DNA from: a virus
IMG/VR virus record: IMGVR_UViG_3300031507_000007
Span: 1-52,545 of that record
Reading direction: 5' to 3' (one strand)
DNA: 52,545 bases
Positions 19,182-52,545 of the stretch are shown here, piece by piece; positions within the stretch are counted from its first letter, which is position 1, and each line of letters opens with the position of its first letter. Below the pieces are notes generated by a model. It was not told the origin of the DNA. It was given only the letters and a program-made list of their open reading frames with translations, and made no database searches. The position numbers and the translations under genes were made by a program.

Positions 19182-19784
19182 TTATCCCTCCACTGCAGTT
19201 TGCGGCGCCTCGAGCATCTCGAGAGCCTTGCTGATCTGTGCGGCCCTGGCGGCGGCCCCGGCGGCGGCCCCGGCGGCGGCCCTGGCGGCGGCCTCGGCGG
19301 CCCCGGCGGCGGCCCCGGCGGCGGCCCTGGCGGCGGCCTCGGCGGCCCCGGCGGCGGCCCTGGCGGCGGCCTCGGCGGCCCCGGCGGCGGCCCAGGCGGC
19401 GGCCTCGGCGGCGGCCTCGTCGGCGGCCCTGGCGGCCCTGGCGGCCTCGTCGGCGGCCCTGGCGGCCTCGGCGGCGGCCTCGGCGGGTTGACCCCGGAGC
19501 CCGGTCACGGTGGCCAGGGTGGCCTTCGCGCGCTCCTGCCAGGCCGGCTCAACGTGCCGGATGGACTGCTCGGCACACCACAGCGAAAAATCGTAGCAGA
19601 GCCACGGATCGCGCTCCCACAGCGCGTGGGTTAGTAGCCACATCTTGTCGCCGTGTGGGATGTCGAACGCGCACGCCTCGCGCGCGGTGATCTCGGGTCG
19701 ACCCATAAAGAACTTATCCAGGGCGTCACCCTGGTAGTCCTCGCAGGCGCCCCACTTCGACAGCAGATCTCGAGTGATGATCAT
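19182..19784 (-). CDS. Protein with an about 95-aa Trp/Cys-containing N-domain and an Ala-rich tandem-repeat C-terminus
   Basis: ATG 19784 in an ATGA overlap with the RHH gene stop. C-terminus: AAEAAARAAAGAAEAAARAAAGAAAGAAEAAARAAAG... Confidence 0.55.
   Translation of the reverse strand: MIITRDLLSKWGACEDYQGDALDKFFMGRPEITAREACAFDIPHGDKMWLLTHALWERDPWLCYDFSLWCAEQSIRHVEPAWQERAKATLATVTGLRGQPAEAAAEAARAADEAARAARAADEAAAEAAAWAAAGAAEAAARAAAGAAEAAARAAAGAAAGAAEAAARAAAGAAAGAAARAAQISKALEMLEAPQTAVEG
19245..19488 (-). repeat. Imperfect tandem repeats (12-nt GGCGGCGGCCYN units in 33/45-nt higher-order units) encoding the Ala-rich array
   Basis: Read directly on the plus strand. The repeats are in frame within CDS 19182..19784. 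Confidence 0.85.
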
Positions 19785-19963: not shown

Positions 19964-20073
19964 TGCGGAGACTCTGGATGCATCGCGAATCGATGTCAAC
20001 AAGTTGATGCAAAATGAATCAAACACCCGATCGATACCCCAACTCCGGATCGTGTCGGCCGATAGTGGAAGGC

Positions 20074-20451
20074 ATGTCCCAATCCACGATCTTGCTGATC
20101 GAAGATGACCCCGATGTTTGCGCGGCCCACTGGCGGTTCCTGCGCCGCACCTTCCCGACGGCCACCGTCATCACCGCGGAGACCGCGTCGCGCGCCATCG
20201 CGATCCTGGCCACCGGCGGCGTCGACATGGTGGTCAGCGACTACTGGCTAGGCAGCAGCAGCGCCGGCACCGGCGGCGATGTCCTGCAGTGGATCCGGCG
20301 TAACCGCCCCGACCTGGAAGACCGCTTCGTGTTCCTCACCGGGTCACCGGCTGAGGTCCAGGATCGCGGCGCGCGGGTCATGATGAAAGGCACGCCGGCC
20401 GAACTGATGCGGAACTTCTTGACCGGCGTGATGGCCGGTACTACAACCTGA
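20074..20451 (+). CDS. Single-domain response-regulator receiver (CheY-like REC) protein
   Basis: MSQSTILLIEDD (acidic pocket), DMVVSDYWL (phospho-acceptor Asp), FLTGS and MMKGTP (Lys-Pro) all sit at canonical spacing. There is no output domain. Confidence 0.8.
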   Translation: MSQSTILLIEDDPDVCAAHWRFLRRTFPTATVITAETASRAIAILATGGVDMVVSDYWLGSSSAGTGGDVLQWIRRNRPDLEDRFVFLTGSPAEVQDRGARVMMKGTPAELMRNFLTGVMAGTTT

Positions 20452-23869: not shown

Positions 23870-24391
23870 CTATAGCGCGTCCCACGGGTCCCGCTCGCCG
23901 CCGAGGATCGCCGCCAGCGCCGCGCGCACCGCGGCCTGGACGCCGGGCTCTCGGCTCTCGCGCGGTCCGGCGACGTTGAGGATGCGGACGTTGCATTCGC
24001 GCAGAAACTGGGATACCCGGTCTATGGCGTGCCTTCGGTATTCGATGTCGGCCACGATGTTGTGCCGGCACGGCTTGCCCAGCGTGCGAGCCATCTTCGC
24101 GGTCAGGTAGCTGCCGCTGTCCATCTCGAGCGGCCCGATCGACAGGATCAGCGTCGCGTCGCTGGCCTCGATGTTCGCGCGGGTCCGCACCGGGTACGCC
24201 GGCGAGGCGCTCTGCACCATGCCGACCCGGTAGCGCTCGGGGATCACGCCGTCCTCGGCGCGCCAGCCCGCCGGCGCAAAGCCGCCCGTGGCGATCCCGA
24301 GGTCCCACGCGGCCTCTAGCGCGCCGCGATCGGCGCCGGTTTGGCCGCCGGAGATGATGCGGGCGACGGTCACCTGCGCGACGATTCCCAT
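23870..24391 (-). CDS. SLOG-superfamily protein, YpsA / 'putative molybdenum carrier' type
   Basis: RIISGGQTGADRGALEAAWDLGIATGGFAPAGWRAEDGVIPERY...RTRANIEASDATLIL. An alternative GTG at 24373 would give a GTGA overlap with the thyX stop. Confidence 0.75.
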   Translation of the reverse strand: MGIVAQVTVARIISGGQTGADRGALEAAWDLGIATGGFAPAGWRAEDGVIPERYRVGMVQSASPAYPVRTRANIEASDATLILSIGPLEMDSGSYLTAKMARTLGKPCRHNIVADIEYRRHAIDRVSQFLRECNVRILNVAGPRESREPGVQAAVRAALAAILGGERDPWDAL

Positions 24392-25041
24392 GCGTCGATG
24401 ATCGTTGGGAACACCGGCCGCAGCAGCGCCAGCATCGCCTCGGCATAGACGCGGATCTCGTACTGCGCGTGCGGGTCAAGCCGCAGCGCGAGCATGTGCA
24501 GGGTGTTGTGGAGGTCGCACTGCCAGTACCACTCGGTGTACGTGCCGCACGGCAGGACCGAGCGCGCCAGCTCGGGCGCGAGTCCCTTGGTGAGCAGTGC
24601 CTCGTAGGCATCGAACGACGCGTTGCAGCTCTGGACCATGAGCCTGTTGCACCCCAACGGGTCGTCAACGATCTGACTGGATGAGCCCTGCTTGTTCGTC
24701 TCGGCCTTGCGTTGCATGCGCTCGCCGACTGGCACGTAGAACTCACGCGCGGCCTGCACATACCGGTAGCTGACCTCGTTGATGCTCGCAGTCCGATGTC
24801 GCACGAGCTGGCGAGCCACGAAGATCGGCATCTTGTGATAGAAGCGAATCTGGCAGAACTCGAGCGGCGTCGTGTGCCTGTGACGCACGAGGTAGCTGGT
24901 GAGCTTGGCGTCCTCGTCCTCGGTGCGCTCCTTGCGGTTGCGGAACGAGGTGCGCGCGGTCTGCGCCGGCGTCCGGTCGTGGCCCATGACGTCGACGAGG
25001 GCGACGAAGCCGTAATCGAGAACTGGGATTTCGTTGGTCAC
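24370..25041 (-). CDS. thyX: FAD-dependent thymidylate synthase ThyX
   Basis: ThyX signature RHRTASINEVSYRY, plus HTTPLEF and the YTEWYWQCDLHNTLH blocks. Confidence 0.9.
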   Translation of the reverse strand: MTNEIPVLDYGFVALVDVMGHDRTPAQTARTSFRNRKERTEDEDAKLTSYLVRHRHTTPLEFCQIRFYHKMPIFVARQLVRHRTASINEVSYRYVQAAREFYVPVGERMQRKAETNKQGSSSQIVDDPLGCNRLMVQSCNASFDAYEALLTKGLAPELARSVLPCGTYTEWYWQCDLHNTLHMLALRLDPHAQYEIRVYAEAMLALLRPVFPTIIDAWESSRR

Positions 25042-34928: not shown

Positions 34929-34942
34929 CAGATCTCGTAGGG

Positions 34943-35014
34943 TGCACCGAGCAGGATTCGAACCTGCATCCGCCAGGTAGAAGCTGGCCGCTCTATCCAT
35001 TGAACTATCGGTGC
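34943..35014 (-). tRNA. tRNA-Arg (anticodon UCU)
   Basis: Folded manually. Acceptor GCACCGA/TCGGTGC, D arm GTTC/GAGC with a GG loop, anticodon arm GCCAG-CTTCTAC-CTGGC, T arm GCAGG-TTCGAAT-CCTGC, discriminator A. CCA is not encoded. Confidence 0.85.
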
Positions 35015-37001: not shown

Positions 37002-37415
37002 CTACTTGCCCTCCTGTGCGAGGCACACCGCGTTGAACTGCGGGCGCAGCGCGGCGTCCTCGCAGTCGGTCGAGCCGTCGGGTAGCGCGGCCTCGACGCA
37101 GGCATCGACCACAGCCTGCTCGCACGCCTCGACGGCCTTGGCAACCTTGGCCTTGGCCTTGGCGACCCGAGCGTTGGCGCGGGCCAGGGCGAGCGCCTGC
37201 TTGGCAGCGGCGACCTCGTCGTCGGGCAGCTCGGCGCCGCAGATGGCGCGGGCCTCGGTGAGGGACACCCCGCCGACCGGGCCGGTTCGCTCGTGGATGC
37301 AGCCGCGCATCCAGGCGCCGTCCGTCTTGCGAGCGTGGGGCTTGCGGTGCGAGCCGGCATCAGCGGCCGACGTGGTGGCGAGGAGCAGGGCGAGAGCGGC
37401 GATCAGGTTGCGCAT
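37002..37415 (-). CDS. Secreted Cys-containing protein (signal peptide)
   Basis: MRNLIAALALLLATTSAADA signal-like N-terminus. 137 aa. Confidence 0.5.
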   Translation of the reverse strand: MRNLIAALALLLATTSAADAGSHRKPHARKTDGAWMRGCIHERTGPVGGVSLTEARAICGAELPDDEVAAAKQALALARANARVAKAKAKVAKAVEACEQAVVDACVEAALPDGSTDCEDAALRPQFNAVCLAQEGK

Positions 37416-37502: not shown

Positions 37503-38003
37503 CTACAGGCGGACCGCGTCGGCCTCTCTGGGGCAAGCGGCCTGGAAGGCCCGACCCGTGGAGCGGCGGATGTCCGCGTCGCGGTATCGGGCCGACACCA
37601 GCTCGTAGGCGTCGGTGCCGTGCTGCAGGATCCCGGCGGCCACCGCGTCTTGGCGGGCCAGCCACAGCATAGAGGCGCATGCCGACCATGCCTCCACGGA
37701 GCGAGGCCGGCGCGCGTAGCCGGCGTATGCCGCCATGGCGATGGACAGAGCGCGATGCGCGGCAGCGGCAGGCGACTCGACCACGAGCCGGGTCACCAGT
37801 TTGCCGCACTGGTCGCGGACGGCGGTGCCGTGCCAGAGCCCGGGCGCCTCGGCATGCTGCGCCTGGATTGCGGCGCGGACGGCCGCATCGGGTGCGGTGT
37901 CCTCGGGGTCCGTGGGGTCGACTGCGCCGGAACAGTAGCAGTGCACGATGGTGCGGCCGGAGGTCATGCGGATGAGGTACTCGCTGATGGTCTTGGTGGT
38001 CAT
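37503..38003 (-). CDS. Hypothetical protein (166 aa)
   Basis: ORF track entry with high GC3. Confidence 0.45.
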   Translation of the reverse strand: MTTKTISEYLIRMTSGRTIVHCYCSGAVDPTDPEDTAPDAAVRAAIQAQHAEAPGLWHGTAVRDQCGKLVTRLVVESPAAAAHRALSIAMAAYAGYARRPRSVEAWSACASMLWLARQDAVAAGILQHGTDAYELVSARYRDADIRRSTGRAFQAACPREADAVRL

Positions 38004-38012
38004 GGTCGTGTC

Positions 38013-38183
38013 CTATCGGGTGGTGGGTTGGTAGGTGGCCAGGATGAGCGCGGAATCGCGCAAGGAGCAGCGCCACCAGCCGTCCTGGAAGCGGTCCATG
38101 TCGAGGATGGCCTCGACCAAGTCGGCCTGGGTGTCGCAGTCCACGGTGACGGTGAGCGGGGCGAGTCGGTGGTAGTGCAGCAT
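38013..38183 (-). CDS. Hypothetical protein (56 aa)
   Basis: Read manually: MLHYHRLAPLTVTVDCDTQADLVEAILDMDRFQDGWWRCSLRDSALILATYQPTTR. Preferred over the Pro/Arg-rich ORF 38000..38224. Confidence 0.35.
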   Translation of the reverse strand: MLHYHRLAPLTVTVDCDTQADLVEAILDMDRFQDGWWRCSLRDSALILATYQPTTR

Positions 38184-38204
38184 GGCGATCTCCTGAGTCG
38201 GGGG

Positions 38205-38357
38205 TTACAGGGACAGGGCTGCAAGGCGAGCCGCGTTGCGAGCGCGGCGGACCGCGTCCTCGTCCGACCAGCGGGCCAAGAGAGCGGCCTGGGCCTCCAT
38301 GACCTGGAAGGCGGACATCGAGGCGAATCGGCTGGTCGGGGCGAGGGTGGTCGGCAT
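38205..38357 (-). CDS. Hypothetical protein (50 aa), first gene of the leftward early cluster
   Basis: ATG 38357 inside ORF 38205..38474, preceded by GAAGGAAC. Confidence 0.4.
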   Translation of the reverse strand: MPTTLAPTSRFASMSAFQVMEAQAALLARWSDEDAVRRARNAARLAALSL

Positions 38358-38380
38358 GGTCGGGTTCCTTCGGGGTTGGT
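38355..38380 (-). repeat. 26-nt start-codon-plus-leader block, copy 2
   Basis: Identical to 37413..37438. Confidence 0.85.
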
Positions 38381-38515
38381 CTAGCCGGCGATTTTCGACC
38401 GGCGAGAATTCTCTCTGCGGGATCCGGGCCAAAATTTTCATACCGCGATGCGATGGGGTATACTCCAGTATCACAGCTAGTTGAACTTCGGGATACTCGG
38501 CTGGATCGCGCGCGA

Positions 38516-38550
38516 CCGTGAATTTTCTGCCACACCAGCCGTGAATTTTC
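38516..38550. repeat. Two perfect 12-nt direct repeats CCGTGAATTTTC (period 23 nt)
   Basis: Read at 38516..38527 and 38539..38550. Confidence 0.85.
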
Positions 38551-38557
38551 GGCTCAT

Positions 38558-38599
38558 GGGTGAAAATCTACCCGGGTGATCCTGGGTGATTTCCTACCC
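38558..38599. repeat. Two 16-nt imperfect direct repeats GGGTGA-N4-CTACCC, with a third GGGTGA between them
   Basis: gggtgaaaatctaccc at 38558..38573 and gggtgatttcctaccc at 38584..38599. The extra GGGTGA is at 38574..38579. Confidence 0.8.
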
Positions 38600-39253
38600 G
38601 CATCGCACGCGATCCCCCGTACCCCCAGGATCGCGCCTATGCGCCCGTGGGCGCGGGCGTCTTGCACTGCCTGCCCGCGGGCGGCCGCGCATGTGTGTGC
38701 GTGAGCGCGATCTATAGAGCTGGCCCGTGTTCGGTAAACGGGGGTGCTTGGCTGGAGTTACTGTCTGGTCAGCGACGGTAATGCGCGAGCTCGAGCGTGT
38801 TCGGCATCGATCGCGTGAGTGCTCTCTCGCGCGCGAATACGTGAGCGCGCGTACACATGCGCGCGCGTTTAATGTGGGGCGGGGGGAGAGACAGCTGAAG
38901 CGTTTTTTCCCCAGCAAACTGTATTCTGGACCACAGGAAGCTCCTCCGATCGGACAGACCTGTCTGATCTGTCCAAAAAGCGGCCTAGAATGGCCCAGGA
39001 CGTTTCCGGGGTACCTAGGTGGCGCCCTACCGGATTGAACGCGCTACAGCGCAAGCCATTGCGGTTTTCTGGCCAACTGTGGACCTCGGATCCTGGTCAG
39101 GTGGAGGTCTGCGGTCATCCGTTCAGAAAATGATAGGCTATCACTTACCACATTTTTTTTCTCCTCTCTCCTTCTTATCCATCCCCCTTTCAGGGGATGG
39201 AATAAGAGGAGATCTATAAGGCAAGCATGTAACTATAGTGCCAACGTGTGAAC

Positions 39254-39324
39254 TTGTTGTAAGTGCCCCCGGTAAAAAACGCCTTGTTGCACCTTGTAGA
39301 TTGATTAGAAATTGTTTACAACAA
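39254..39324. promoter_or_regulatory. Operator-like CTTGT(T/A)G half-sites, including the 9-bp inverted repeat TTGTTGTAA / TTACAACAA, upstream of the XRE gene
   Basis: TTGTTGTAA at 39254..39262 and TTACAACAA at 39316..39324. Extra CTTGTTG at 39283..39289 and CTTGTAG at 39293..39299. Confidence 0.45.
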
Positions 39325-39365
39325 CGTCCCGATAGTTATCCCACTCTAGTCATTGAGGTTACAGC

Positions 39366-39962
39366 ATGTCATCACAGGGCAAGTGCGATTTCGCCGTCAT
39401 GGCCAGGTCGCTGCGCATCCTTCACCGGAAGAAGCAACGCGAGGTTGCGGCGGCCATCGGTATCCAGCCGTCGACCTACGGCAACCTCGAATCGTCTTCA
39501 TTTAAGATCGTCCGCCGGGAGCGAGTCGACGACCTCTCGCGGCTATACAAACTGGACGCAGCGCAGCATTCCGCGCTGGTCGCCGCCTGGGAGGCCGCGC
39601 CGATCAGCGACTACAGCAAGAAGCAGCGCGACGGCTGGGCCAAGCGCAACGAGGCCAGGTCCAAGGGCCGCCGCCTCGACATGGTTCAGACCGCGCTCTG
39701 CGATCTCCTCGACGCGATCGCGAGCTCGGCGGCGGCCGGCGAGCCGTGTCCGTCGGCCTGCTCGTGCGTCGCGCCGGATGCGTTCGTCGACGAGCCCGGC
39801 CGGACGTGCGAGCTGTGCTCCGCGTTCCACGCGCTCGGCTTCCCCGACGGCTTCGTCTCGCCCGACGTGGCCGCTCAGCGGATCGCCGACATCTCGCCGG
39901 TCGCGCTCAACGAGCGCCCGGTCGTTCCGAACACGCCGCACGTTCCGAAGGCGGGATCGTGA
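39366..39962 (+). CDS. XRE-family (Cro/CI-type) HTH regulator with a Cys-containing C-terminal domain
   Basis: GAGG lies 7 nt upstream of the ATG. LRILHRKKQREVAAAIGIQPSTYGNLES is an HTH segment. Confidence 0.65.
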   Translation: MSSQGKCDFAVMARSLRILHRKKQREVAAAIGIQPSTYGNLESSSFKIVRRERVDDLSRLYKLDAAQHSALVAAWEAAPISDYSKKQRDGWAKRNEARSKGRRLDMVQTALCDLLDAIASSAAAGEPCPSACSCVAPDAFVDEPGRTCELCSAFHALGFPDGFVSPDVAAQRIADISPVALNERPVVPNTPHVPKAGS

Positions 39963-40751: not shown

Positions 40752-40951
40752 AGCTCGAAGGAACCCTACCCGTCCCGAGCTCGAGCTGGATGATCTACGA
40801 GGGCAAGACGCAGAACTACGTGGCTCGCATCGGCCCCAACGGCGGATTCAAGCGCACGACCTCCGGCGGGCGGCGCGCCGGCGCGAAGTGGAAGCGCAAG
40901 GCGCGGACCGCCGCGAAGCGATCTCCGAGAATACCGAAGGCAGGGCCGTGA
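40748..40951 (+). CDS. Basic hypothetical protein (67 aa)
   Basis: GTG start in a GTGA overlap, in the frame of ORF 40418..40951. Confidence 0.4.
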   Translation: MKLEGTLPVPSSSWMIYEGKTQNYVARIGPNGGFKRTTSGGRRAGAKWKRKARTAAKRSPRIPKAGP

Positions 40952-41427
40952 GACGCGACAACGCAGAATTGCTACGCGAGTTGCGAGCGAAGGCAAGGAT
41001 CGAAGGAAAGTGCGGCGAGTGTCGGCTGCGACCGGTGGTGGACGGATGCCGAACGTGCAGGGTATGCCTCGACGCACACCGATCGAGATCGTCAGCGTAT
41101 ACCGCGCTGTCGCTCTGCGCATGCGGGGGAGAGCGTGCACCCGGAATAACATCGTGTCGTCGCTGCGCTGATACTACAGCGGCCCGCGAGAGGTCTCGGC
41201 GCGCCAATCTGGTTGCCCAGGGCGTCTGTGGAGAATGCGGCAGCAATCCGTCGGAGGCCGGATTCAGTCACTGCCTCGAATGCCTGGAGCTCCTCCGCGT
41301 TCGCAAGCTGACTGAATCGCGTATGAGCGGAGCAGCTCCCAGGCAGTGCGGTTCCTGCGGAAGACCTGGACACAACCGACGGACCTGCGAGAGATACCAG
41401 GCTCGCGCGACAGCGTGGTCGCCGTGA
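40948..41427 (+). CDS. Multi-zinc-ribbon protein ending in a canonical CCHC zinc knuckle
   Basis: GTG start in a GTGA overlap. CGECRLRP..CRTCRVC, CGECG...CLEC, and the C-terminal CGSCGRPGHNRRTC (CX2CX4HX4C). Confidence 0.5.
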   Translation: MRRDNAELLRELRAKARIEGKCGECRLRPVVDGCRTCRVCLDAHRSRSSAYTALSLCACGGERAPGITSCRRCADTTAARERSRRANLVAQGVCGECGSNPSEAGFSHCLECLELLRVRKLTESRMSGAAPRQCGSCGRPGHNRRTCERYQARATAWSP

Positions 41428-43620: not shown

Positions 43621-44109
43621 GTGCCGAGGCCGAAGAAGTACAAGCCGCGAAAGCCGAAGACGCCGGATCCATGGGACGCGCTCCCCGCCGAGGTAGAGCC
43701 GGATCCACCCAACCCGGAGGCTGATCTTCCCGAGCTGCCTCCGATGGCGCCGGTCAACGCGATCGAGGAGGCAACGCCGCCCTCGCCGGCGATCACCGCG
43801 CTCGGCACGCCGGCCGGCTCCGTCCGCTCGATGGCGGAATGGAGCTATCAGCTCGTCATGACGCAGGCGTTTGAGGCCGCTAACGACGCTACCGTGTCCG
43901 CCGCCCGACGAGAAATCCGGGTGCGCGCGCTGCTCGCGACCGCCGCGCGCATCTACCCGGATGCGCTACGGCAGGAAGCGGCCCGCGAGATCAAGTCGAG
44001 CCGCAGCAAGATCGAGGATCGCCGGCGATCCAACCGGGCGGCAGCTCAGATCGAGCCCCGACCGGCGCCGCCGGGCAACGTGATCCAGTTCCGCGGAACC
44101 CGTGGGTAG
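43621..44109 (+). CDS. Small terminase subunit candidate (by position only)
   Basis: 162 aa with a basic N-terminus (PRPKKYKPRKPK). Directly upstream of, and overlapping, the large terminase gene. Confidence 0.35.
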   Translation: MPRPKKYKPRKPKTPDPWDALPAEVEPDPPNPEADLPELPPMAPVNAIEEATPPSPAITALGTPAGSVRSMAEWSYQLVMTQAFEAANDATVSAARREIRVRALLATAARIYPDALRQEAAREIKSSRSKIEDRRRSNRAAAQIEPRPAPPGNVIQFRGTRG

Positions 44110-45850
44110 GATCTCCGAACAAGATGCGCTCGCGCAGCACCACCGCGAGTTCGACGCCGGCGGGCGCGCCGCGATCGACATGCGGCTCGACTTCCAGCTC
44201 GAGGGCGAGGATCGGGTCCTGCTCTCGGTCGGCGGATCGTGGAACCTGAAGCTCGAGGACTTCGACCAGGACGCCGATGGCGCGGTTGTCGTCCGGATCC
44301 ACGCCGGCCAGGTCCGCGCCGTCGAGTGGTTCGCGCTCTGGATGGCCAAGCACTCCGATCGCCGCCGCAACCCGCCAACGCTGCCCGAGGACTTCGATCT
44401 CGAGGCCGACCTGGCGCGCGAAGTCCCCGACGACGAGGTCTACTCGGCGCTGTTCGCCGGCGGCCGGCGCGGCGGCAAGACCTGGATCGCGGCGGCGCTG
44501 TGCTTGGCCTACGCGATCGCCTTCCCCGACGCGCTGGTCTGGGTGGTCGAGCCGAGCCGCGGCAAGGATGACGACAAGGCCGACGAGGTCCGCCGCTACT
44601 TCGCGCGGCTGCTCGCGCCGGCCTGGGTGACGCACCAGACCGCCGGCGAGTGGGTCCTGATCAACGGATCGAAGATCCAGCTCAAGAGCGCGCACACCGG
44701 CAGCGATCCGGACGCGATCAAGCAGGGCGAGGCTCATCTGATCTGGATGAACGAGGGCCAGAAGATGAAGAAGCGCGTCTATACGGTCGGCCGCGCCGCG
44801 ATCGTGGACCGCTCCGGCCTCGTGCTGATCTGCGCGAACCCGCCGGTCGAGGCCAAGGATGAGCAGTGGGTCTCCGACTTCGCGTCCGACGCCGAGACCA
44901 AGCGGCGCGCGAGCGTCTACATCCACTTCAACCCGCTCGACAACCACAAGATCGACCGGCGCGGCCTGCTCTCGATGAAAGCGGAGGTCGACGAGCGCAC
45001 GTTCAAGATCGAGGTACTCGGCGAGTTCCTCGGCCCCGCCGACGCGGTCGCCTACAACTGGCAGCGGATGCACAACGAGATGCCGGCGCCGAAGCCCGGC
45101 GAGGGGATGATCGACGTCACCGAGGCGTTCATGCGGCTTGTCGAAGAGGGCGAGGGGATCCGCGACGTGATCGGCGCCGATATGCAGGTCCTGCCGTACA
45201 TCGGCGGCCCGGTCTACCGGTTCTTCTGCCCGGTCGACAAGCAGATCTCGCGCGAGACCGTGCGGGCCTGGATCGTCGGAGAGGTCATTCTCGAGGGAGA
45301 CGAACTCGACTGGTGCGCCGAGCTCGCGGCGCGGAAGTTCAACCCGGCCACGACGCTGATCATCTGCGATGCGACGGCCGAGTACCAGCACACGCGCCGG
45401 CGCTCGACCGACACGCCGCCGCCAGAATGGCAGGGCCGCGGATCGTTCGACCTGATCCGCCAGGCCGGCTACACGCGGATCGTCCCGCCGAGCCGGCGCC
45501 TGCGAAAGAAGAACCCCCCGATCGTCGACCGCATCCGCGCGATGACCTCGATGATCTCGTCGGGAACCGGCGTCCGCCGGCTGTTCATCGACCGCGACAA
45601 GGCTCCGAAGGCGGCCCAGGCGGTGCGCGAATGGCGCAACGTCCATGGCAAGCCGAGCCGGATCCAAGAGGTCGCCCACATGGGGGACGGCATCTCCTAT
45701 CCCATGATTCGCCTCTTCCCAAGAATCCAGCGATCGGGCAAACCCGCGGAGATGGACCCCGTGACCCAGCGTGTAGACCGGCAGGCCGTGCAGGCCGCCG
45801 CGGACCAGCCGCGCCGCGCCAGCCGGCGCGATCGCTACCGGGGCCTGTGA
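44102..45850 (+). CDS. terL: Terminase large subunit
   Basis: Walker A GGRRGGKT, Walker B-like HLIWMNE. 582 aa, upstream of the portal gene. Confidence 0.8.
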   Translation: MGRISEQDALAQHHREFDAGGRAAIDMRLDFQLEGEDRVLLSVGGSWNLKLEDFDQDADGAVVVRIHAGQVRAVEWFALWMAKHSDRRRNPPTLPEDFDLEADLAREVPDDEVYSALFAGGRRGGKTWIAAALCLAYAIAFPDALVWVVEPSRGKDDDKADEVRRYFARLLAPAWVTHQTAGEWVLINGSKIQLKSAHTGSDPDAIKQGEAHLIWMNEGQKMKKRVYTVGRAAIVDRSGLVLICANPPVEAKDEQWVSDFASDAETKRRASVYIHFNPLDNHKIDRRGLLSMKAEVDERTFKIEVLGEFLGPADAVAYNWQRMHNEMPAPKPGEGMIDVTEAFMRLVEEGEGIRDVIGADMQVLPYIGGPVYRFFCPVDKQISRETVRAWIVGEVILEGDELDWCAELAARKFNPATTLIICDATAEYQHTRRRSTDTPPPEWQGRGSFDLIRQAGYTRIVPPSRRLRKKNPPIVDRIRAMTSMISSGTGVRRLFIDRDKAPKAAQAVREWRNVHGKPSRIQEVAHMGDGISYPMIRLFPRIQRSGKPAEMDPVTQRVDRQAVQAAADQPRRASRRDRYRGL

Positions 45851-47190
45851 CCCAGATAGTGACGCTGCCGCGCGCGCTGCGCCGGCCGGCGGACTCGAGG
45901 CTTTTGGACTCGAACGGGCGCCCGCTGCCCCCGGTCCGGCCCCGCCTGCGCGTCGCCGCGCCGAACGCGCGCGGCACCGAGACCTACAACCGCCACCCGG
46001 CATTCGGCCTGACGGCGGAGATGCTGTTCTCCTACTTCCGGCTCGCCGAGGCCGGCCAGCCGCTGCAGCAGTTCGACATGTTCGACGACCTCATCGAGCG
46101 GTGGGGATCGCTGCGCGGCATGATCAACTACCGCAACGAGAGCGTCTCGGGCTGCGACTTCGTGATCATGCCGCCGCCGGGCCGCGTCGATGTGCTGAGC
46201 GTCAAGGCCGCTGCCGAGCTCAACGATCGGCTGCAGAGCCAGCTGCAATTCCGCGAGTTCCTCGGGCACCAGCTGAGCGCGGTCCCGTACGGCGTCGCGA
46301 TGACCAACATGGTGTGGGACTACGACCAGGGCATCGTGGTGCCGGTCGAGTTCGTGAACCCGGCGGCGCGCCGGTTCGCCTCCCCGTCGCAGGAGCGCGC
46401 CGACGAGATCTGGCTCTACGACGGGACGCCCGGATCGCTGGGCCTGATCGCCCTCGACCCGGGCCTCTGGGCGATCTCGCGCTACCGCTACCGGAACCCG
46501 TGGGCCGCCGGACTGATGCGGACGTGCTCGATCCTGGCGATGTTCACCGGCTGGGGTGTGCTCGGCTGGCAGACCTACCTCGACATGTTCGGCCTCCCGT
46601 TGGCGATCGGCTACTACGACGAGGGCGCCGGCCCGGAGTCGCGCAAGGCGCTCGAGGAAGCGGTGACCGGGATCGGACAGGACGGCTTCGCCATTCTGTC
46701 GTCGCTTACCGAGCTGGTGATCAAGGAGACGGCGCGTGGCGGAGACAGCTCGACGGCGTATCCCCAGATCCTGCGCTGGTGCGAGGATCAGGCGGCCAAG
46801 CTCCTCACCGGCGGCACGCTCAACACCGACGTGTCGGGCAGCGGCGCTGGTAGCTATAACGCCGCCGCAGTCCACGAGAGCCGCGGCTACGCGATGCTCT
46901 GCAACGACGCCAAAACCGTCGAAGAGATGTTCGTGCGCGACATCGGCCGGCCGTTCGTGGCGTGGAACGGCTACGACGGCGCCGCGCCACCGCGCCTGAA
47001 GATCCGAATCCGGCGCGACGCGCTGCAGTGGGCGCAGACGATCGAGATCCTGGGCCAGGCGGTCGAGCTCGACCCGACCCAGATCTACGAGGACTTCGGC
47101 CTCCGTGTGCCGGCGAAGGGCACGGGGGTGAAGTTTGAGGCCACCAAGCCGCCCGACCCGGGCCACGCGCGCGAGGACAAAAACAAATGA
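45847..47190 (+). CDS. Portal protein, Mu gp29 (DUF935)-like
   Basis: GTG start in a GTGA overlap, inside ORF 44866..47190. 447 aa. Assigned from position and a DUF935-like N-terminus (FRLAEAGQPLQQFDMFDDL). Confidence 0.75.
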   Translation: MTQIVTLPRALRRPADSRLLDSNGRPLPPVRPRLRVAAPNARGTETYNRHPAFGLTAEMLFSYFRLAEAGQPLQQFDMFDDLIERWGSLRGMINYRNESVSGCDFVIMPPPGRVDVLSVKAAAELNDRLQSQLQFREFLGHQLSAVPYGVAMTNMVWDYDQGIVVPVEFVNPAARRFASPSQERADEIWLYDGTPGSLGLIALDPGLWAISRYRYRNPWAAGLMRTCSILAMFTGWGVLGWQTYLDMFGLPLAIGYYDEGAGPESRKALEEAVTGIGQDGFAILSSLTELVIKETARGGDSSTAYPQILRWCEDQAAKLLTGGTLNTDVSGSGAGSYNAAAVHESRGYAMLCNDAKTVEEMFVRDIGRPFVAWNGYDGAAPPRLKIRIRRDALQWAQTIEILGQAVELDPTQIYEDFGLRVPAKGTGVKFEATKPPDPGHAREDKNK

Positions 47191-48584
47191 CGCGACACGC
47201 AACGGTCGAGGATCTATGGGCGATGCCGAGACTCCAGGTCGGAGCGCCCATGTTGTCGGCGAACCCCATCCCGGATCGTCATGGCGGTGCGATCCGCTCG
47301 TTCGGATGCCGCGGCGACGACGAGATTATCGCGGAGCGCGGCGCGCGCGGTATCGAGATCTTGTCCGACATCGAGATCCATGGCCGCGGGTCGCCGCACA
47401 GCGAACTCAAGGCCGGCGGCGGCGAGGACACGAACGCGCACCGGCTCGAGGTCATCCAGGCCGTTCGCGACGGCAAGCACCTAGAGCTGATGGTCAAGCG
47501 CGCGCGGACCTACCGCCAGAGCAAGGGCAGCAAGAATCGGCGCTACCTGCGGTTCGCCGCGGACGAACTCGACGCGGTAGCCCCGAGCTTCGCCGGTCAG
47601 CCGCTGCTGGTCGACCACAACACGTACGAGCAGGACAAGCGCAAGGGCACGATCCTCACCTCGGCGTCCGAGACCAACGGCCAGGGCATCACGTCGTTTT
47701 TCATGGGATTTGCGGTCGTGAAGCCCGACGCCGTGATCTCGGTGCTCGACGGCACCATCGACCGGTTCTCGATCGGCTGGTTCCCCGGCGCCGAGATCCT
47801 CTGCACGGCTCACGGGTGCAACATCATGGGCAAGGACTCCTGCTACTGCTGGCCCGGCGAAGAGGTCGAGGTTGACGGGAAGCTCAAGATCGCCGAATAC
47901 GAATTCAAAGGCGCCACTGGTAAGGAACTTTCTGCTGTCAACGTCCCCGCGGTAACCGGGACCCGAATCGAAGACTACCGCGCGGCACTGGCGGCCGAGT
48001 TGCAACTACCACCGACGAGAACCAAGGAGCGAACGAAGATGCTATTCACCCGACTTGCGGCGGCCCTCGGGCTCGCCGCGCTGAGCGAAGCCGGCCACGA
48101 GGATGCCGCGCTCGCCGCACTCGAGGGGCAGCGCAAGCGCCTTCTCGCCGCGGAGGTCGACGTGGGTACGCTCCGCGTCGACGTCGCCCGCCTCACCACC
48201 GAGCGCGACACCGCGCGCGCCGAGGCGAACCTCGCCGCCGGCGCCGCGATCGATCGCGTGGTCGCCGACGCCTACTCCGAGGGCAAGCTCGGCTACGGCC
48301 GCGATGCCGCCGGCGCGGCGCTCGCCGACCCGATGGAGTCGCTCCTGCGCGACTTCGGCAAGGCGGCCGGGCTCGATGCCCTGTCCGCCAAGCTCAAGGC
48401 GATGGCGCCGCGGATCCCGGTGGGCCAGCGCCAGCCGCTGCCGGCCGAGCCCGCGCGCCAGCTCGCCGCGGTCCCTACCGATGCCCAGATCGCAGCCACC
48501 GCGCTGCAGCTCGGCGTTCCGGTCGACTCCGTCCGCGCGCGCTACGGGCTCGCCCCGCTGGCGCAGGCTGGGGGTGCCCGTTGA
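47187..48584 (+). CDS. Prohead protease fused to a scaffold-like coiled-coil C-terminus
   Basis: FSIGW...ELSAVNVPAV is a protease-like ending. An Ala/Leu/Arg coiled coil follows. ATGA overlap at its start. Confidence 0.65.
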   Translation: MTRHATVEDLWAMPRLQVGAPMLSANPIPDRHGGAIRSFGCRGDDEIIAERGARGIEILSDIEIHGRGSPHSELKAGGGEDTNAHRLEVIQAVRDGKHLELMVKRARTYRQSKGSKNRRYLRFAADELDAVAPSFAGQPLLVDHNTYEQDKRKGTILTSASETNGQGITSFFMGFAVVKPDAVISVLDGTIDRFSIGWFPGAEILCTAHGCNIMGKDSCYCWPGEEVEVDGKLKIAEYEFKGATGKELSAVNVPAVTGTRIEDYRAALAAELQLPPTRTKERTKMLFTRLAAALGLAALSEAGHEDAALAALEGQRKRLLAAEVDVGTLRVDVARLTTERDTARAEANLAAGAAIDRVVADAYSEGKLGYGRDAAGAALADPMESLLRDFGKAAGLDALSAKLKAMAPRIPVGQRQPLPAEPARQLAAVPTDAQIAATALQLGVPVDSVRARYGLAPLAQAGGAR

Positions 48585-49007: not shown

Positions 49008-50135
49008 ATGAACGGCCAGCTGATCACGCAGTTCCACGAGGGCTCGCGCCGCCAGGAGATGTTCCGCTCCGCGCTGATGGGCCACGGCGGATCGCTGCTC
49101 GACATCCAGGCGCAGCGCCTGCCGCACGGGGTGATGGTGCCGGGGCTGGCCGACAGCACGGTCAACACCGGCATCCGGATCGGCGGCACCTCGCCGGACG
49201 AGCAGAAGGTCGAGATCGCCTACGTCGGGTTCGGCACCAGACTCGCGAACCGGCTCTCGACCTACGAGAGCTTCTACCAGCGGCTCGCCACGGTCGTCGA
49301 CAGCCCGAACCTCATCAACCGCGAGATCTGGCTGAACGCTCTGCCCGTGATGCGCATGTGGCTCGGTCCCAAGGTCATCGAGCGGATATCGGCCGAGAAC
49401 ACCCCGATCGTGACGCGGCCCCACGAGGTCTCGATCGCGATCGGCAAGGGCACGCTGCAGAACGATCAGTTGGGCCTGTACGGGCAGCTGGTCGACAAGC
49501 TCGCCGAGGCGTACCCGAACGCCCTCGACGACCTGGTGATCACGATGCTGTGCGCCGGCATCCAGGGCACGGCCCTGGGCGCCACGTACGACGGGCAGAA
49601 CCTGATCGACACCGATCACACGTTCCGCTCGGCCGACACGGGCATCGCGGCGTTCCAGTACAGCAACAAGGTCACCGGCGCGTTCACGGCCTCCGTGTTC
49701 CAGTCGGCCGTGAATCTGTACAAGACGCTGAAGAACGAGCGCGGCATCCCGGTCAACGTCGGCAAGGGACAGATGATGCTCGTGCACGGCCCGGCGAACC
49801 GCATCCCGGTGCGCAACGTCCTCAAGCAGGACATCGGCGCCGGCCTCGTCCAGAACCTCGACAAGGACACGGCGATCCCGGTCGAGGTGCCCTGGATCCA
49901 GGCGCGCACGACCAGCGTGCTCGGGACCTCGGTCACGCTGACCGGGCTCGAGTGGTTCCTGATGCCCGCGAACTCGACCGCCGTCATCCTGCAGCGCAAG
50001 CGCGCCGCGGAGCTGATGTCGGTGGAGCAGGGCTACCAGGTGTTCATGGACGGCACCTACTACTACGGCCTGGAAGCCGAGTTCGGCGCGGCGTACGGCC
50101 TGCCGCAAGAGATCGTCGGCGGCCCCGGATCGTAA
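49008..50135 (+). CDS. Major capsid protein, Mu gpT-like
   Basis: 375 aa. Assigned from position and the WLGPKVIERISAENTPIVTRPHEVSIAI...NDQLGLY pattern. Confidence 0.75.
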   Translation: MNGQLITQFHEGSRRQEMFRSALMGHGGSLLDIQAQRLPHGVMVPGLADSTVNTGIRIGGTSPDEQKVEIAYVGFGTRLANRLSTYESFYQRLATVVDSPNLINREIWLNALPVMRMWLGPKVIERISAENTPIVTRPHEVSIAIGKGTLQNDQLGLYGQLVDKLAEAYPNALDDLVITMLCAGIQGTALGATYDGQNLIDTDHTFRSADTGIAAFQYSNKVTGAFTASVFQSAVNLYKTLKNERGIPVNVGKGQMMLVHGPANRIPVRNVLKQDIGAGLVQNLDKDTAIPVEVPWIQARTTSVLGTSVTLTGLEWFLMPANSTAVILQRKRAAELMSVEQGYQVFMDGTYYYGLEAEFGAAYGLPQEIVGGPGS

Positions 50136-50164: not shown

Positions 50165-50239
50165 TGCGGGATGGAGAAGAGGCATCTCGGGTGGCTCATA
50201 ACCACCAGACCCCGGGTTCGAGTCCCGGTCCCGCTACCA
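50165..50239 (+). tRNA. tRNA with a CAU anticodon (Met or Ile2), CCA encoded
   Basis: Folded manually. D arm GAGA/TCTC, anticodon arm GGTGG-CTCATAA-CCACC, T arm CCGGG-TTCGAGT-CCCGG, acceptor TGCGGGA/TCCCGCT with a U1:U72 mismatch, discriminator A, then CCA. Confidence 0.8.
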
Positions 50240-52399: not shown

Positions 52400-52545
52400 A
52401 TGCCCGCCCCCACCCACATCATGGTAACCGCGGCGCCAGGCCGCCGCCCGCCGATCCACAACGACGACGGCCGAGATCTTGGAGGCGGTCTGTTGTACGC
52501 CGACGACGCCACCGTGATCCGGGTGAGGTACTCGCAGGCGATCCG
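52400..52545 (+). CDS. N-terminal part of the junction-spanning small tail-module protein (continues at 128..254)
   Basis: ATG 52400 follows the upstream stop (TGAATG). It is in frame with ORF 3..254 through the duplicated 127 nt. Confidence 0.5.
   Translation, partial: MPAPTHIMVTAAPGRRPPIHNDDGRDLGGGLLYADDATVIRVRYSQAI
52419..52545. repeat. Terminal overlap copy 2, identical to 1..127
   Basis: Compared base by base. Confidence 0.9.

Follow-up and report, generated by a model that had tools for sequence, protein, structure and literature searches.

A gene-free kilobase in an uncultivated phage genome probably holds the joined ends of a cos-type chromosome

We analysed a window of 52,545 nucleotides (nt; 68% GC), positions 1 to 52,545 of the IMG/VR virus record IMGVR_UViG_3300031507_000007, and concentrate on a gene-free stretch within it at 38358-39365 (the gap), in which the contig ends of related phages point to the two ends of a chromosome with cohesive ends (cos). 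Because the terminal 127 nt are identical (1-127 and 52419-52545), the window represents a circular assembly of 52,418 base pairs (bp). Baseplate and tail genes lie within 1-17 kb. The large terminase gene is at 44102-45850, and the head genes are Mu-like (portal, 45847-47190; gpT-type capsid, 49008-50135; protease; Gp36). Also encoded are a DnaB-type helicase, a primase, ThyX, RecT, a PD-(D/E)XK nuclease and RusA; the helicase and primase genes are found at 25.5-29.1 kb together with that of a protein with multiple helix-turn-helix (HTH) domains. Domain scans agree with the initial annotation that the phage has its own helicase and primase and no recognised initiator. In the open reading frames (ORFs) of the phage the scans found no integrase, transposase, protelomerase or recombinase domains.

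The phage is remote from cultured isolates. A DNA-level search of 50,697 GenBank phage records returned no similar sequence, and the best isolate matches among GenBank phage proteins are distant (large terminase ~23% and portal 28% identity). Searches of IMG/VR with two proteins and two DNA motifs, and of GTDB genomes with the portal protein, gave no match. The same proteins are carried by the ENA metagenome contig ERZ27251791 k141_2303219 (52,559 bp), which is opened elsewhere, at ~window 48957, inside a gene. Related contigs (L numbers below) were collected through the XRE protein encoded to the right of the gap (nine homologues, P0001-P0009, 38-95% identical), through a PD-(D/E)XK homologue and through homologues of a 137-amino-acid (aa) protein encoded at 37002-37415. 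This last protein is a conserved, secreted, Cys-rich protein with 37 homologues and four invariant cysteines.

Gene calls made independently on the source contig leave 38358-39365 empty. The gap is the window's longest stretch without codon-position GC periodicity, and substitutions relative to two relatives are spread evenly over the three phases (9/8/9 and 11/11/11). The empty gene call and the lack of periodicity in both GC and substitutions bear out the earlier claim that the region is gene-free, and the small ORFs within it, with neither codon periodicity nor conservation, were rejected as genes. The features of the gap and its borders, by window position, are as follows.

38205-38357, minus strand: first gene of the leftward operon, 50 aa (MPTTLAPTSRFA...), from the gene call, with the same N-terminus in L014, L019, L029 and L033; left border of the gap.
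38358-38894: right-terminal non-coding arm, 537 nt; contigs extending from the left terminate at its right edge, and it aligns with relatives despite the replacement of neighbouring genes.
38416-38431, minus strand: putative sigma-54-type -24/-12 core TGGCCCGGATCCCGCA, with GG at 38430-38429 and GC at 38418-38417; predicted start ~38405, toward the leftward operon.
38455-38480: block GGGGTATACTCCAGTATCACAGCTAG, between array and core, identical in five close lineages, with sigma-70-like hexamers on both strands and a TATCAC motif.
38516-38599: repeat array, candidate enhancer or operator, ~70-170 nt 5' of the core; CCGTGAATTTTC twice, GGGTGA-N4-CTACCC twice, and GGGTGA.
38686-38703: 18-nt perfectly alternating purine/pyrimidine tract, Z-DNA-prone, from a tract scan.
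38845-38868: 24-nt perfectly alternating tract from the same scan, the window's longest; flagged also as a GC hairpin followed by T-rich DNA.
38867-38914: cos core (TTTAAT, G-run, GACAG|CTGAAG, T6C4), where contig ends cluster; probable top-strand cut at 38894/38895.
38895-38900: CTGAAG, apparent 5' cohesive end, present in both left-end and right-end contigs.
38901-39130: conserved left-terminal block (~235 nt), candidate terminase recognition region, 86-89% identical to relatives.
39131-39144: palindromic operator-like site TGATAGGCTATCAC; a CTATCAC-containing site occupies the same position in six lineages.
39153-39212, plus strand: T8-led polypyrimidine tract running into an 18-20-bp hairpin (39167-39212); z = -4.8 against shuffles, with covariation.
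39294-39322, plus strand: sigma-70-like promoter for the XRE operon, TTGTAG-17 nt-TACAAC, aligned in five lineages; predicted start ~39330.
39366-39962, plus strand: XRE-family HTH gene (Pfam HTH_31/HTH_3; homologues P0001-P0009), first of a rightward array; right border of the gap.

All of the motifs listed in the initial annotation were found within 1 nt of the positions it gave. CCGTGAATTTTC is at 38516 and 38539, with exact copies nowhere else in the window. GGGTGA-N4-CTACCC is at 38558 and 38584, the only two matches in the window (0.15 expected), and an additional GGGTGA is at 38574. CGTGAG(C/T)GC occurs at 38700, 38814 and 38840, GCGATCC..GGATCGC at 38609..38634, TTGTTGTAA/TTACAACAA at 39254/39316 and, on the minus strand, TTCAAC-17-TATACC at 38485..38457; the T8-led polypyrimidine tract starts at 39153 and the hairpin occupies 39167-39212. 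All six GAAAAT/ATTTTC and all three GTGAAWWT sequences of the 52.5-kb window also fall in the gap. The region is non-coding, with region-specific and partly conserved repeats, as expected of the control region between divergently transcribed clusters that the initial annotation had proposed.

The contig ends of the relatives cluster inside the gap. We counted ends in contigs (no reads) from at least six lineages and at least nine samples: 12 of the 15 ends inside the gap lie within 31 nt of 38894/38895 (GACAG|CTGAAG), and nine of the 15 within 6 nt. Contigs with XRE homologues (59-95% identical, at least six samples) all begin no more than 31 nt from a common point, and for three the distance is 2 nt or less; apart from the short contig L005, they start 325-507 nt 5' of the XRE gene. 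Among these left ends, L007 starts at CCGAAGCG, L008 at CTGAAGCA and L002 at GAAGCG, while L006, L004 and L003 start 4, 13 and 31 nt earlier, so that left ends begin with CTGAAG, CCGAAG or GAAG (L008, L007 and L002, respectively). Contigs arriving from the other side stop at ...GACAGCTG (L026), ...GACAGCTGAA (L024) and ...GACAGCTGAAG (L019), finishing at CTG, CTGAA or CTGAAG. In a distant lineage, L029 and L030, from two sequencing runs and samples, end at the identical base (...GACAGCCGCG, at the homologous CCGCG). Contigs of about one genome length (51,005, 50,995 and 52,487 bp, against the 52,418-bp circular assembly) also end at the 38894/38895 point. The homologous junction is bridged in five assemblies (the window, L013, L014, L016 and L017). 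A search of GTDB with an alignment of the 137-aa neighbour found one contig of a metagenome-assembled genome (MAG), which breaks within the GC-rich part of the right arm, short of the cos site.

Left-end and right-end contigs have just 3-6 nt (CTGAAG) in common and leave no gap between them. Because this overlap is far below the k-1 of an assembler and nothing is lost, the break appears to be neither a graph branch nor an unsequenceable stretch. Clustered ends, genome-long contigs and assemblies that read through the junction therefore point to fixed, cos-type termini, and CTGAAG, being common to both ends, to an apparent 5' cohesive end. The authors of PhageTerm describe contig-end behaviour of this kind for cos phages, in which filled-in 5' overhangs give the same terminal sequence on both ends and contaminating circular forms shift the cos site to a random internal position (PMC5557969). 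Sequence conservation is focused on the same place. TTTAA-N-GGGGG-N-GACAGC(T/C)G is kept in all lineages, with TTTAA(T/C) at its start, between flanks that have diverged, and a T/C-rich run right of the cut is likewise kept in all lineages (GCGTTTTTTCCCCAG in the window). No second or inverted copy of the break sequence was found elsewhere in the genome.

We conclude that the gap probably represents the joined ends of the linear, ~52.4-kb cos-type chromosome of a soil phage, flanked by the control DNA of two operons that point outward. The mapping of the chromosome ends to GACAG|CTGAAG (38894/38895-38900) is well supported by the contig ends, and the 6 nt shared by the two sides suggest short 5' cohesive ends, CTGAAG, produced by a staggered cut. 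Judging by the read-through assemblies, joined-end molecules also exist. The initial annotation could not have detected these termini, which fall midway through the region.

Several points weigh against this conclusion. The termini were located indirectly, from contig ends. The polarity and the 6-nt length of the cohesive end are tentative, because the paired ends come from contigs of differing samples and lineages. In one older assembly, two contigs from a single sample (L010 and L003) share 50 nt that span the site; some assemblers therefore split the sequence at this point even where reads bridge it. With an identity of only ~23% to known large terminases, the enzyme of this phage does not allow the type of packaging to be predicted, and no terminase-binding repeats were identified in the left arm.

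In lambda, the small terminase subunit binds cosB, and cosQ is found immediately 5' of the cut (PMC4669245). The locus described here resembles lambda cos in its single fixed cut site with joined and cut forms, in the short conserved element just 5' of the cut, at the position of cosQ, in the longer conserved non-coding block toward the terminase genes, at the position of cosB, and in its apparent 5'-protruding ends. It differs in the apparent overhang (~6 nt, against 12 nt in lambda), in the distance of the terminase genes (4.7 kb, whereas those of lambda are adjacent), in that no R-type repeats or IHF site were recognised, and in its proteins, since the large terminase is ~23% identical to that of any isolate and the head genes are Mu-like. 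The block at 38901-39130 contains invariant stretches of up to 50 nt and no codon periodicity, and TCCGGGGTAYC-N5-TGGCGCCC within it is retained in six lineages. Because the block sits on the side leading to the terminase genes it takes the position of cosB, which makes it a candidate for packaging recognition; the comparison is one of position only.

Other kinds of DNA end were considered and rejected. Mu-type ends came into question through the Mu-like portal, protease, capsid and Gp36 genes, and the left end, (C)TGAAGCG, resembles the start of the right end of Mu. Beyond each end, however, the sequence is that of the opposite phage end and not variable host DNA, no transposase was found, and the phage has its own helicase and primase. 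An attP site was rejected for want of an integrase or recombinase domain and of any contig running into host DNA, and a protelomerase target (telRL) because there is only a 6-bp palindrome, CAGCTG, at the break and no protelomerase gene was found. As to a protelomerase-type fold-back, L003 runs straight into the other end.

The right arm carries what appears to be a promoter of the leftward operon. In the 110 nt 5' of the first leftward gene, the only contiguous blocks that are invariant across eight lineages are TGGCxCG and, five bases on, GC; a few scattered invariant columns occur as well, including a CGA triplet in the leader. TGGCMCG-N5-YGCW matches the window once (38431..38416, minus strand) and is present in every related locus that covers the position, facing the first leftward gene; L033 has a second match elsewhere. 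The distance from core to ATG is 66-77 nt in all lineages examined. The sigma-54 consensus is TGGCACG-N4-TTGCW, with real examples including TGGCACAGATTTCGCT, and such promoters need an activator, typically bound 70-150 bp upstream (PMC3844500). We read the element as a sigma-54 promoter core because the critical bases are invariant while the spacer has drifted.

The array at 38516-38599 lies where an activator would be expected. It consists of two palindromic 16-mers placed 26 nt apart and two direct 12-mers placed 23 nt apart, and no other part of the right arm is as well conserved (0.90-0.93 identity). In distant lineages, palindromes of the type CGAAATC-N6-GATTTCG (2-4 elements, ~22 bp) occupy the same place, and further copies adjoin the core or lie in the leader. 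Since the array is ~70-170 nt upstream of a conserved core, it may hold the sites of an activator, a repressor or both, and the copies by the core and in the leader suggest a repressor role as well. On the basis of these positions and of conservation we favour, with moderate confidence, a role of the right arm as a sigma-54 promoter with its enhancer.

Promoters of this class with enhancers, such as glnAp2 with its NtrC sites (PMC3844500), share with the arm the invariant GG and GC, ten bases apart at -24/-12 spacing, within TGGCxCG...GC, the palindromic and tandem repeats ~70-170 nt upstream, and a core 66-77 nt from the start codon. The arm differs from them in lying at a phage chromosome end, before a presumably early operon, and in a phage with no enhancer-binding ATPase. 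Some observations speak against a sigma-54 promoter. The window's core has three mismatches to TGGCACG-N4-TTGCW (one to three in relatives), and a single match per 52 kb, where 0.6 are expected, is not significant alone, so that the case depends on conservation. No enhancer-binding ATPase (Sigma54_activat) was found in the phage ORFs scanned, so the host would have to supply both sigma-54 and the ATPase. We found no phage precedent for a sigma-54-dependent operon of this kind in a non-exhaustive search of the literature.

Three further observations concern the same subject. A second near-consensus TGGCAC element on the minus strand at 39243..39228 (TGGCACTATAGTTACA) was rejected as a promoter, having no -12 GC and being absent from L003; it is the window's only match within two mismatches of the canonical sigma-54 consensus, where chance alone would give 7, and the motif is thus depleted. 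Among the phage proteins is a stand-alone response-regulator receiver domain (20014-20451, plus strand), which is of note given the putative sigma-54 promoter and has neither an ATPase nor a DNA-binding domain; also encoded are a circularly permuted YpsA (SLOG) protein (23870-24391, minus strand) and ThyX (24370-25041, minus strand). A leftward sigma-70 promoter, TTCAAC-17 nt-TATACC, had been proposed in the arm. Its -35 hexamer varies between lineages, and its -10 lacks the final T that our scan requires. In the conserved GGGGTATACTCCAGTATCACAGCTAG block these hexamers stand on the minus strand and TTTTCA-18-TATACT on the plus strand.

The gene order is reminiscent of mycobacteriophages of the L5 type, which have cos genomes with a leftward early promoter near the right cohesive end. 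Here too a long leftward operon begins some hundreds of bp inside the right end, and the structural genes are oriented rightward, starting at the left end, but there is no sequence relationship and the promoter is of -24/-12 type. The genes adjoining the right arm (window 37503-38357, compared with L010 5826-6548) are swapped between close relatives while the non-coding arm is kept, and the 166-aa and 50-aa proteins of the left flank have no exact copy in the sequences searched. Because these neighbours are replaced while the arm and the 137-aa protein are conserved, the right end appears to be a mosaic hot spot. Within the arm, an internal repeat (GAGCT..CGTGTTCGG) occurs twice, ~70 nt apart (38717-38734 and 38787-38804), and L019 and L026 carry (G/C)CTGGTCAG twice instead; the paired change of both copies suggests either a cassette that has been swapped or a further pair of sites for a protein.

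Between the array and the right end lie the window's two longest perfectly alternating purine/pyrimidine tracts, of 24 and 18 nt; a tract of 24 nt was reached in 2 of 200 simulated genomes. Homologous arms contain tracts of 29 and 26 nt (L014), 30, 28, 23, 22 and 18 nt (L016) and 44 and 28 nt (L029). Their position is conserved and their sequence is not. The GC hairpins noted earlier are present in this part of the arm, but they are no more stable than shuffled sequence (38609-38634 and 38845-38866; z = -0.6 and -1.4).

In the left arm, the cos-proximal block gives way to a region (39131-39365) that diverges fast, with ~55% identity to L003 compared with 86% for the block, as expected of an immunity-type operator region. 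The polypyrimidine-led hairpin pointed out by the initial annotation is real and beyond chance. Compensatory changes affect 15 of its 18 pairs across eight lineages, and 90% of cells are paired, compared with 56-64% when the partners are slid, a value matched by none of 500 shuffles. Pyrimidines invariably make up the 5' arm and purines the 3' arm. Read in the plus-strand sense, the mismatches comprise 14 U-G and 5 C-A, and this excess of U-G hints at a role as plus-strand RNA. On neither strand is the hairpin followed by a terminator-like U-tail, and the sequence upstream yielded no conserved promoter.

Closer to the XRE gene, TTG(C/T)NN-17-TA(T/C)(C/A)A(A/C) aligns in five lineages and is a sigma-70-like promoter. 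It overlaps two elements that had been read as operators, the CTTGTAG half-site and, in the 9-bp inverted repeat, the right arm. The CTTGT(T/A)G half-sites are indeed present, with the CTTGTAG copy overlapped by this conserved promoter; the 9-bp inverted repeat is already broken in the closest, 95%-identical relative.

The clustered contig ends could in principle be an assembly artefact, caused by DNA that is hard to sequence or by the boundary of a variant region, with no physical ends behind them. Long GC-rich alternating tracts and hairpins do lie just left of the break, the left-side genes are replaced between lineages as at a mosaic boundary, the 50-nt overlap of L010 and L003 within one sample is as would be seen at a graph branch, and L027 and L033 break within the GC-rich part, off the site. 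Neither difficult DNA nor a branch, however, would be expected to leave ends between which nothing is lost and which overlap by 3-6 nt, well under k-1. The same end base recurs across samples, assemblers and lineages with only 59-70% XRE identity, contigs about one genome long terminate there, and the sole sequence around the site conserved in all lineages is a short asymmetric motif right at the break. We therefore regard an artefact as distinctly unlikely. A replication origin, for which the initial annotation had named the gap as the best candidate, would be compatible with termini; the repeats would be iterons for an unrecognised initiator, and AT-rich DNA would melt to load the DnaB-type helicase and the primase. 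The repeated motifs are unique to the gap, the array shifts in concert between lineages as would the sites of a co-evolving binding protein, the lowest GC of the genome is at 39131-39365 (42%), and the phage encodes helicase and primase with no recognised initiator. As in iteron origins such as lambda ori and P1 oriR, short repeats are clustered about two helical turns apart (23 nt) and AT-rich DNA is present in the same intergenic region. Iteron origins hold at least three direct repeats of ~17-22 bp in helical phase. The repeats called iteron-like are real and region-specific, but only two perfect direct 12-mers are present, the remainder are palindromic pairs, and the array stands at the position of an enhancer relative to a conserved core. 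Nor is the AT-rich DNA contiguous with them: the DNA adjoining the array is 55-66% GC, with no AT-rich unwinding element beside it, and the AT-rich patch is ~550 nt off, beyond the apparent chromosome ends, where a conserved sigma-70-like promoter and operator region explains it. The neighbours of the array are small proteins of unknown function and the XRE regulator, with no adjacent initiator, and the replication genes, including that of the multi-HTH DNA-binding protein beside the primase, are 9-13 kb away. A turn of GC skew at 39 kb is uninformative because it coincides with the switch in transcription direction. We found no positive evidence for an origin and consider one unlikely; a promoter-based explanation fits the positions better.

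A structured non-coding RNA (ncRNA) in the centre of the gap had also been suggested, and might run from a plus-strand sigma-70-like promoter at 38435-38464 to the hairpin and T-rich sequence at 38845-38876, or lie as a small RNA within 38895-39070. Our scan does flag plus-strand promoter-like and terminator-like sites, the 38455-38480 block does not vary among five lineages, and the hairpin at 39167-39212 covaries with mismatches that are mostly U-G on the plus strand. Against this, Rfam reports nothing matching such an RNA even at E <= 10: in searches at the gathering and at a permissive threshold, the gathering score was reached only by two tRNAs elsewhere, and the strongest hit within 38200-39500 (E-value 0.097) was to eukaryotic miRNA-type hairpin models. 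The GC hairpins fold like shuffled sequence, part of the right arm's interior has been swapped among close lineages, and an RNA gene over 38894/38895 would be split in virion DNA. Covariation in homologous regions, which the initial annotation had proposed as a check, singled out the hairpin at 39167-39212; no conserved RNA structure was found in the right arm or in 38895-39135, for which the covariation term is unfavourable. An RNA gene here is highly improbable.

Taking the gap as joined cos ends, we propose the following scheme. Terminase would cut in a staggered fashion, so that CTGAAG is left as short 5' cohesive ends; it would be guided on the right-end side by the conserved TTTAAT and G-run, and also by the conserved 235-nt left-end block on the side toward the terminase genes, which lie at a distance of 4.7 kb. 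Once injected, the ends would anneal and restore the 1-kb region. The right arm would then drive the leftward operon from the sigma-54-type -24/-12 promoter (38431..38416), with the iteron-like repeats ~70-170 nt upstream binding its activator or repressor, and the left arm would drive the XRE operon from the sigma-70-like promoter at 39294-39322, 80-190 nt 3' of the operator-like sites and the hairpin. The hairpin and the alternating tracts may be topological or insulating elements. A tentative and rather doubtful extension is that the leftward operon depends on host sigma-54 and the right-end enhancer array, with the tracts (up to 44 nt) and the hairpin responding to supercoiling, so that the terminal promoters would sense that injected DNA has circularised.

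These results indicate that a large and puzzling intergenic region in a circularly assembled phage genome can be two joined chromosome ends, and that the ends of public contigs alone can locate such ends to a few bases in a clade without a cultured member. They give the clade a linear map, with the XRE and structural genes on the left and the leftward operon at the right end, and define its packaging site. If the -24/-12 promoter is real, this would be an unusual phage case of a chromosome-end operon tied to host sigma-54 and an enhancer, and the host would be limited to phyla that bear sigma-54. Actinobacteria, which are not known to have sigma-54, would thus be excluded. The sole hint about the host, a weak one, comes from the related phage contig L033 (DATEMW010000326.1, 29,137 bp), which was binned with a soil MAG assigned to Candidatus Methylomirabilota and which breaks within the GC-rich alternating tracts. 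The long alternating tracts next to the end, conserved in position, are a testable feature.

Elsewhere in the window, a second uncalled stretch of ~400 nt (40952-41345) overlaps a 179-aa ORF (40888-41427, plus strand) that is CxxC-rich and zinc-finger-like; the ORF has no Pfam or PHROG match and its codon periodicity is weak. A segment at 19190-19540 (81% GC) is built of GGC/CCC-type units with 9/12-nt periodicity in 21 overlapping copies and probably encodes a repeat protein rich in Gly, Pro and Ala. Inside the head-protease/scaffold gene (47187-48584), ARAGORN calls a tRNA-like element with a four-base anticodon (cggt) at 48152-48244 (minus strand), which is probably a false positive because Rfam does not report it. 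A tRNA-Arg(TCT) gene lies at 34941-35014 (minus strand) inside the leftward operon of small genes, and a tRNA-Met(CAT) gene at 50165-50239 (plus strand), midway through the head module and directly 3' of the gene for the major capsid protein.

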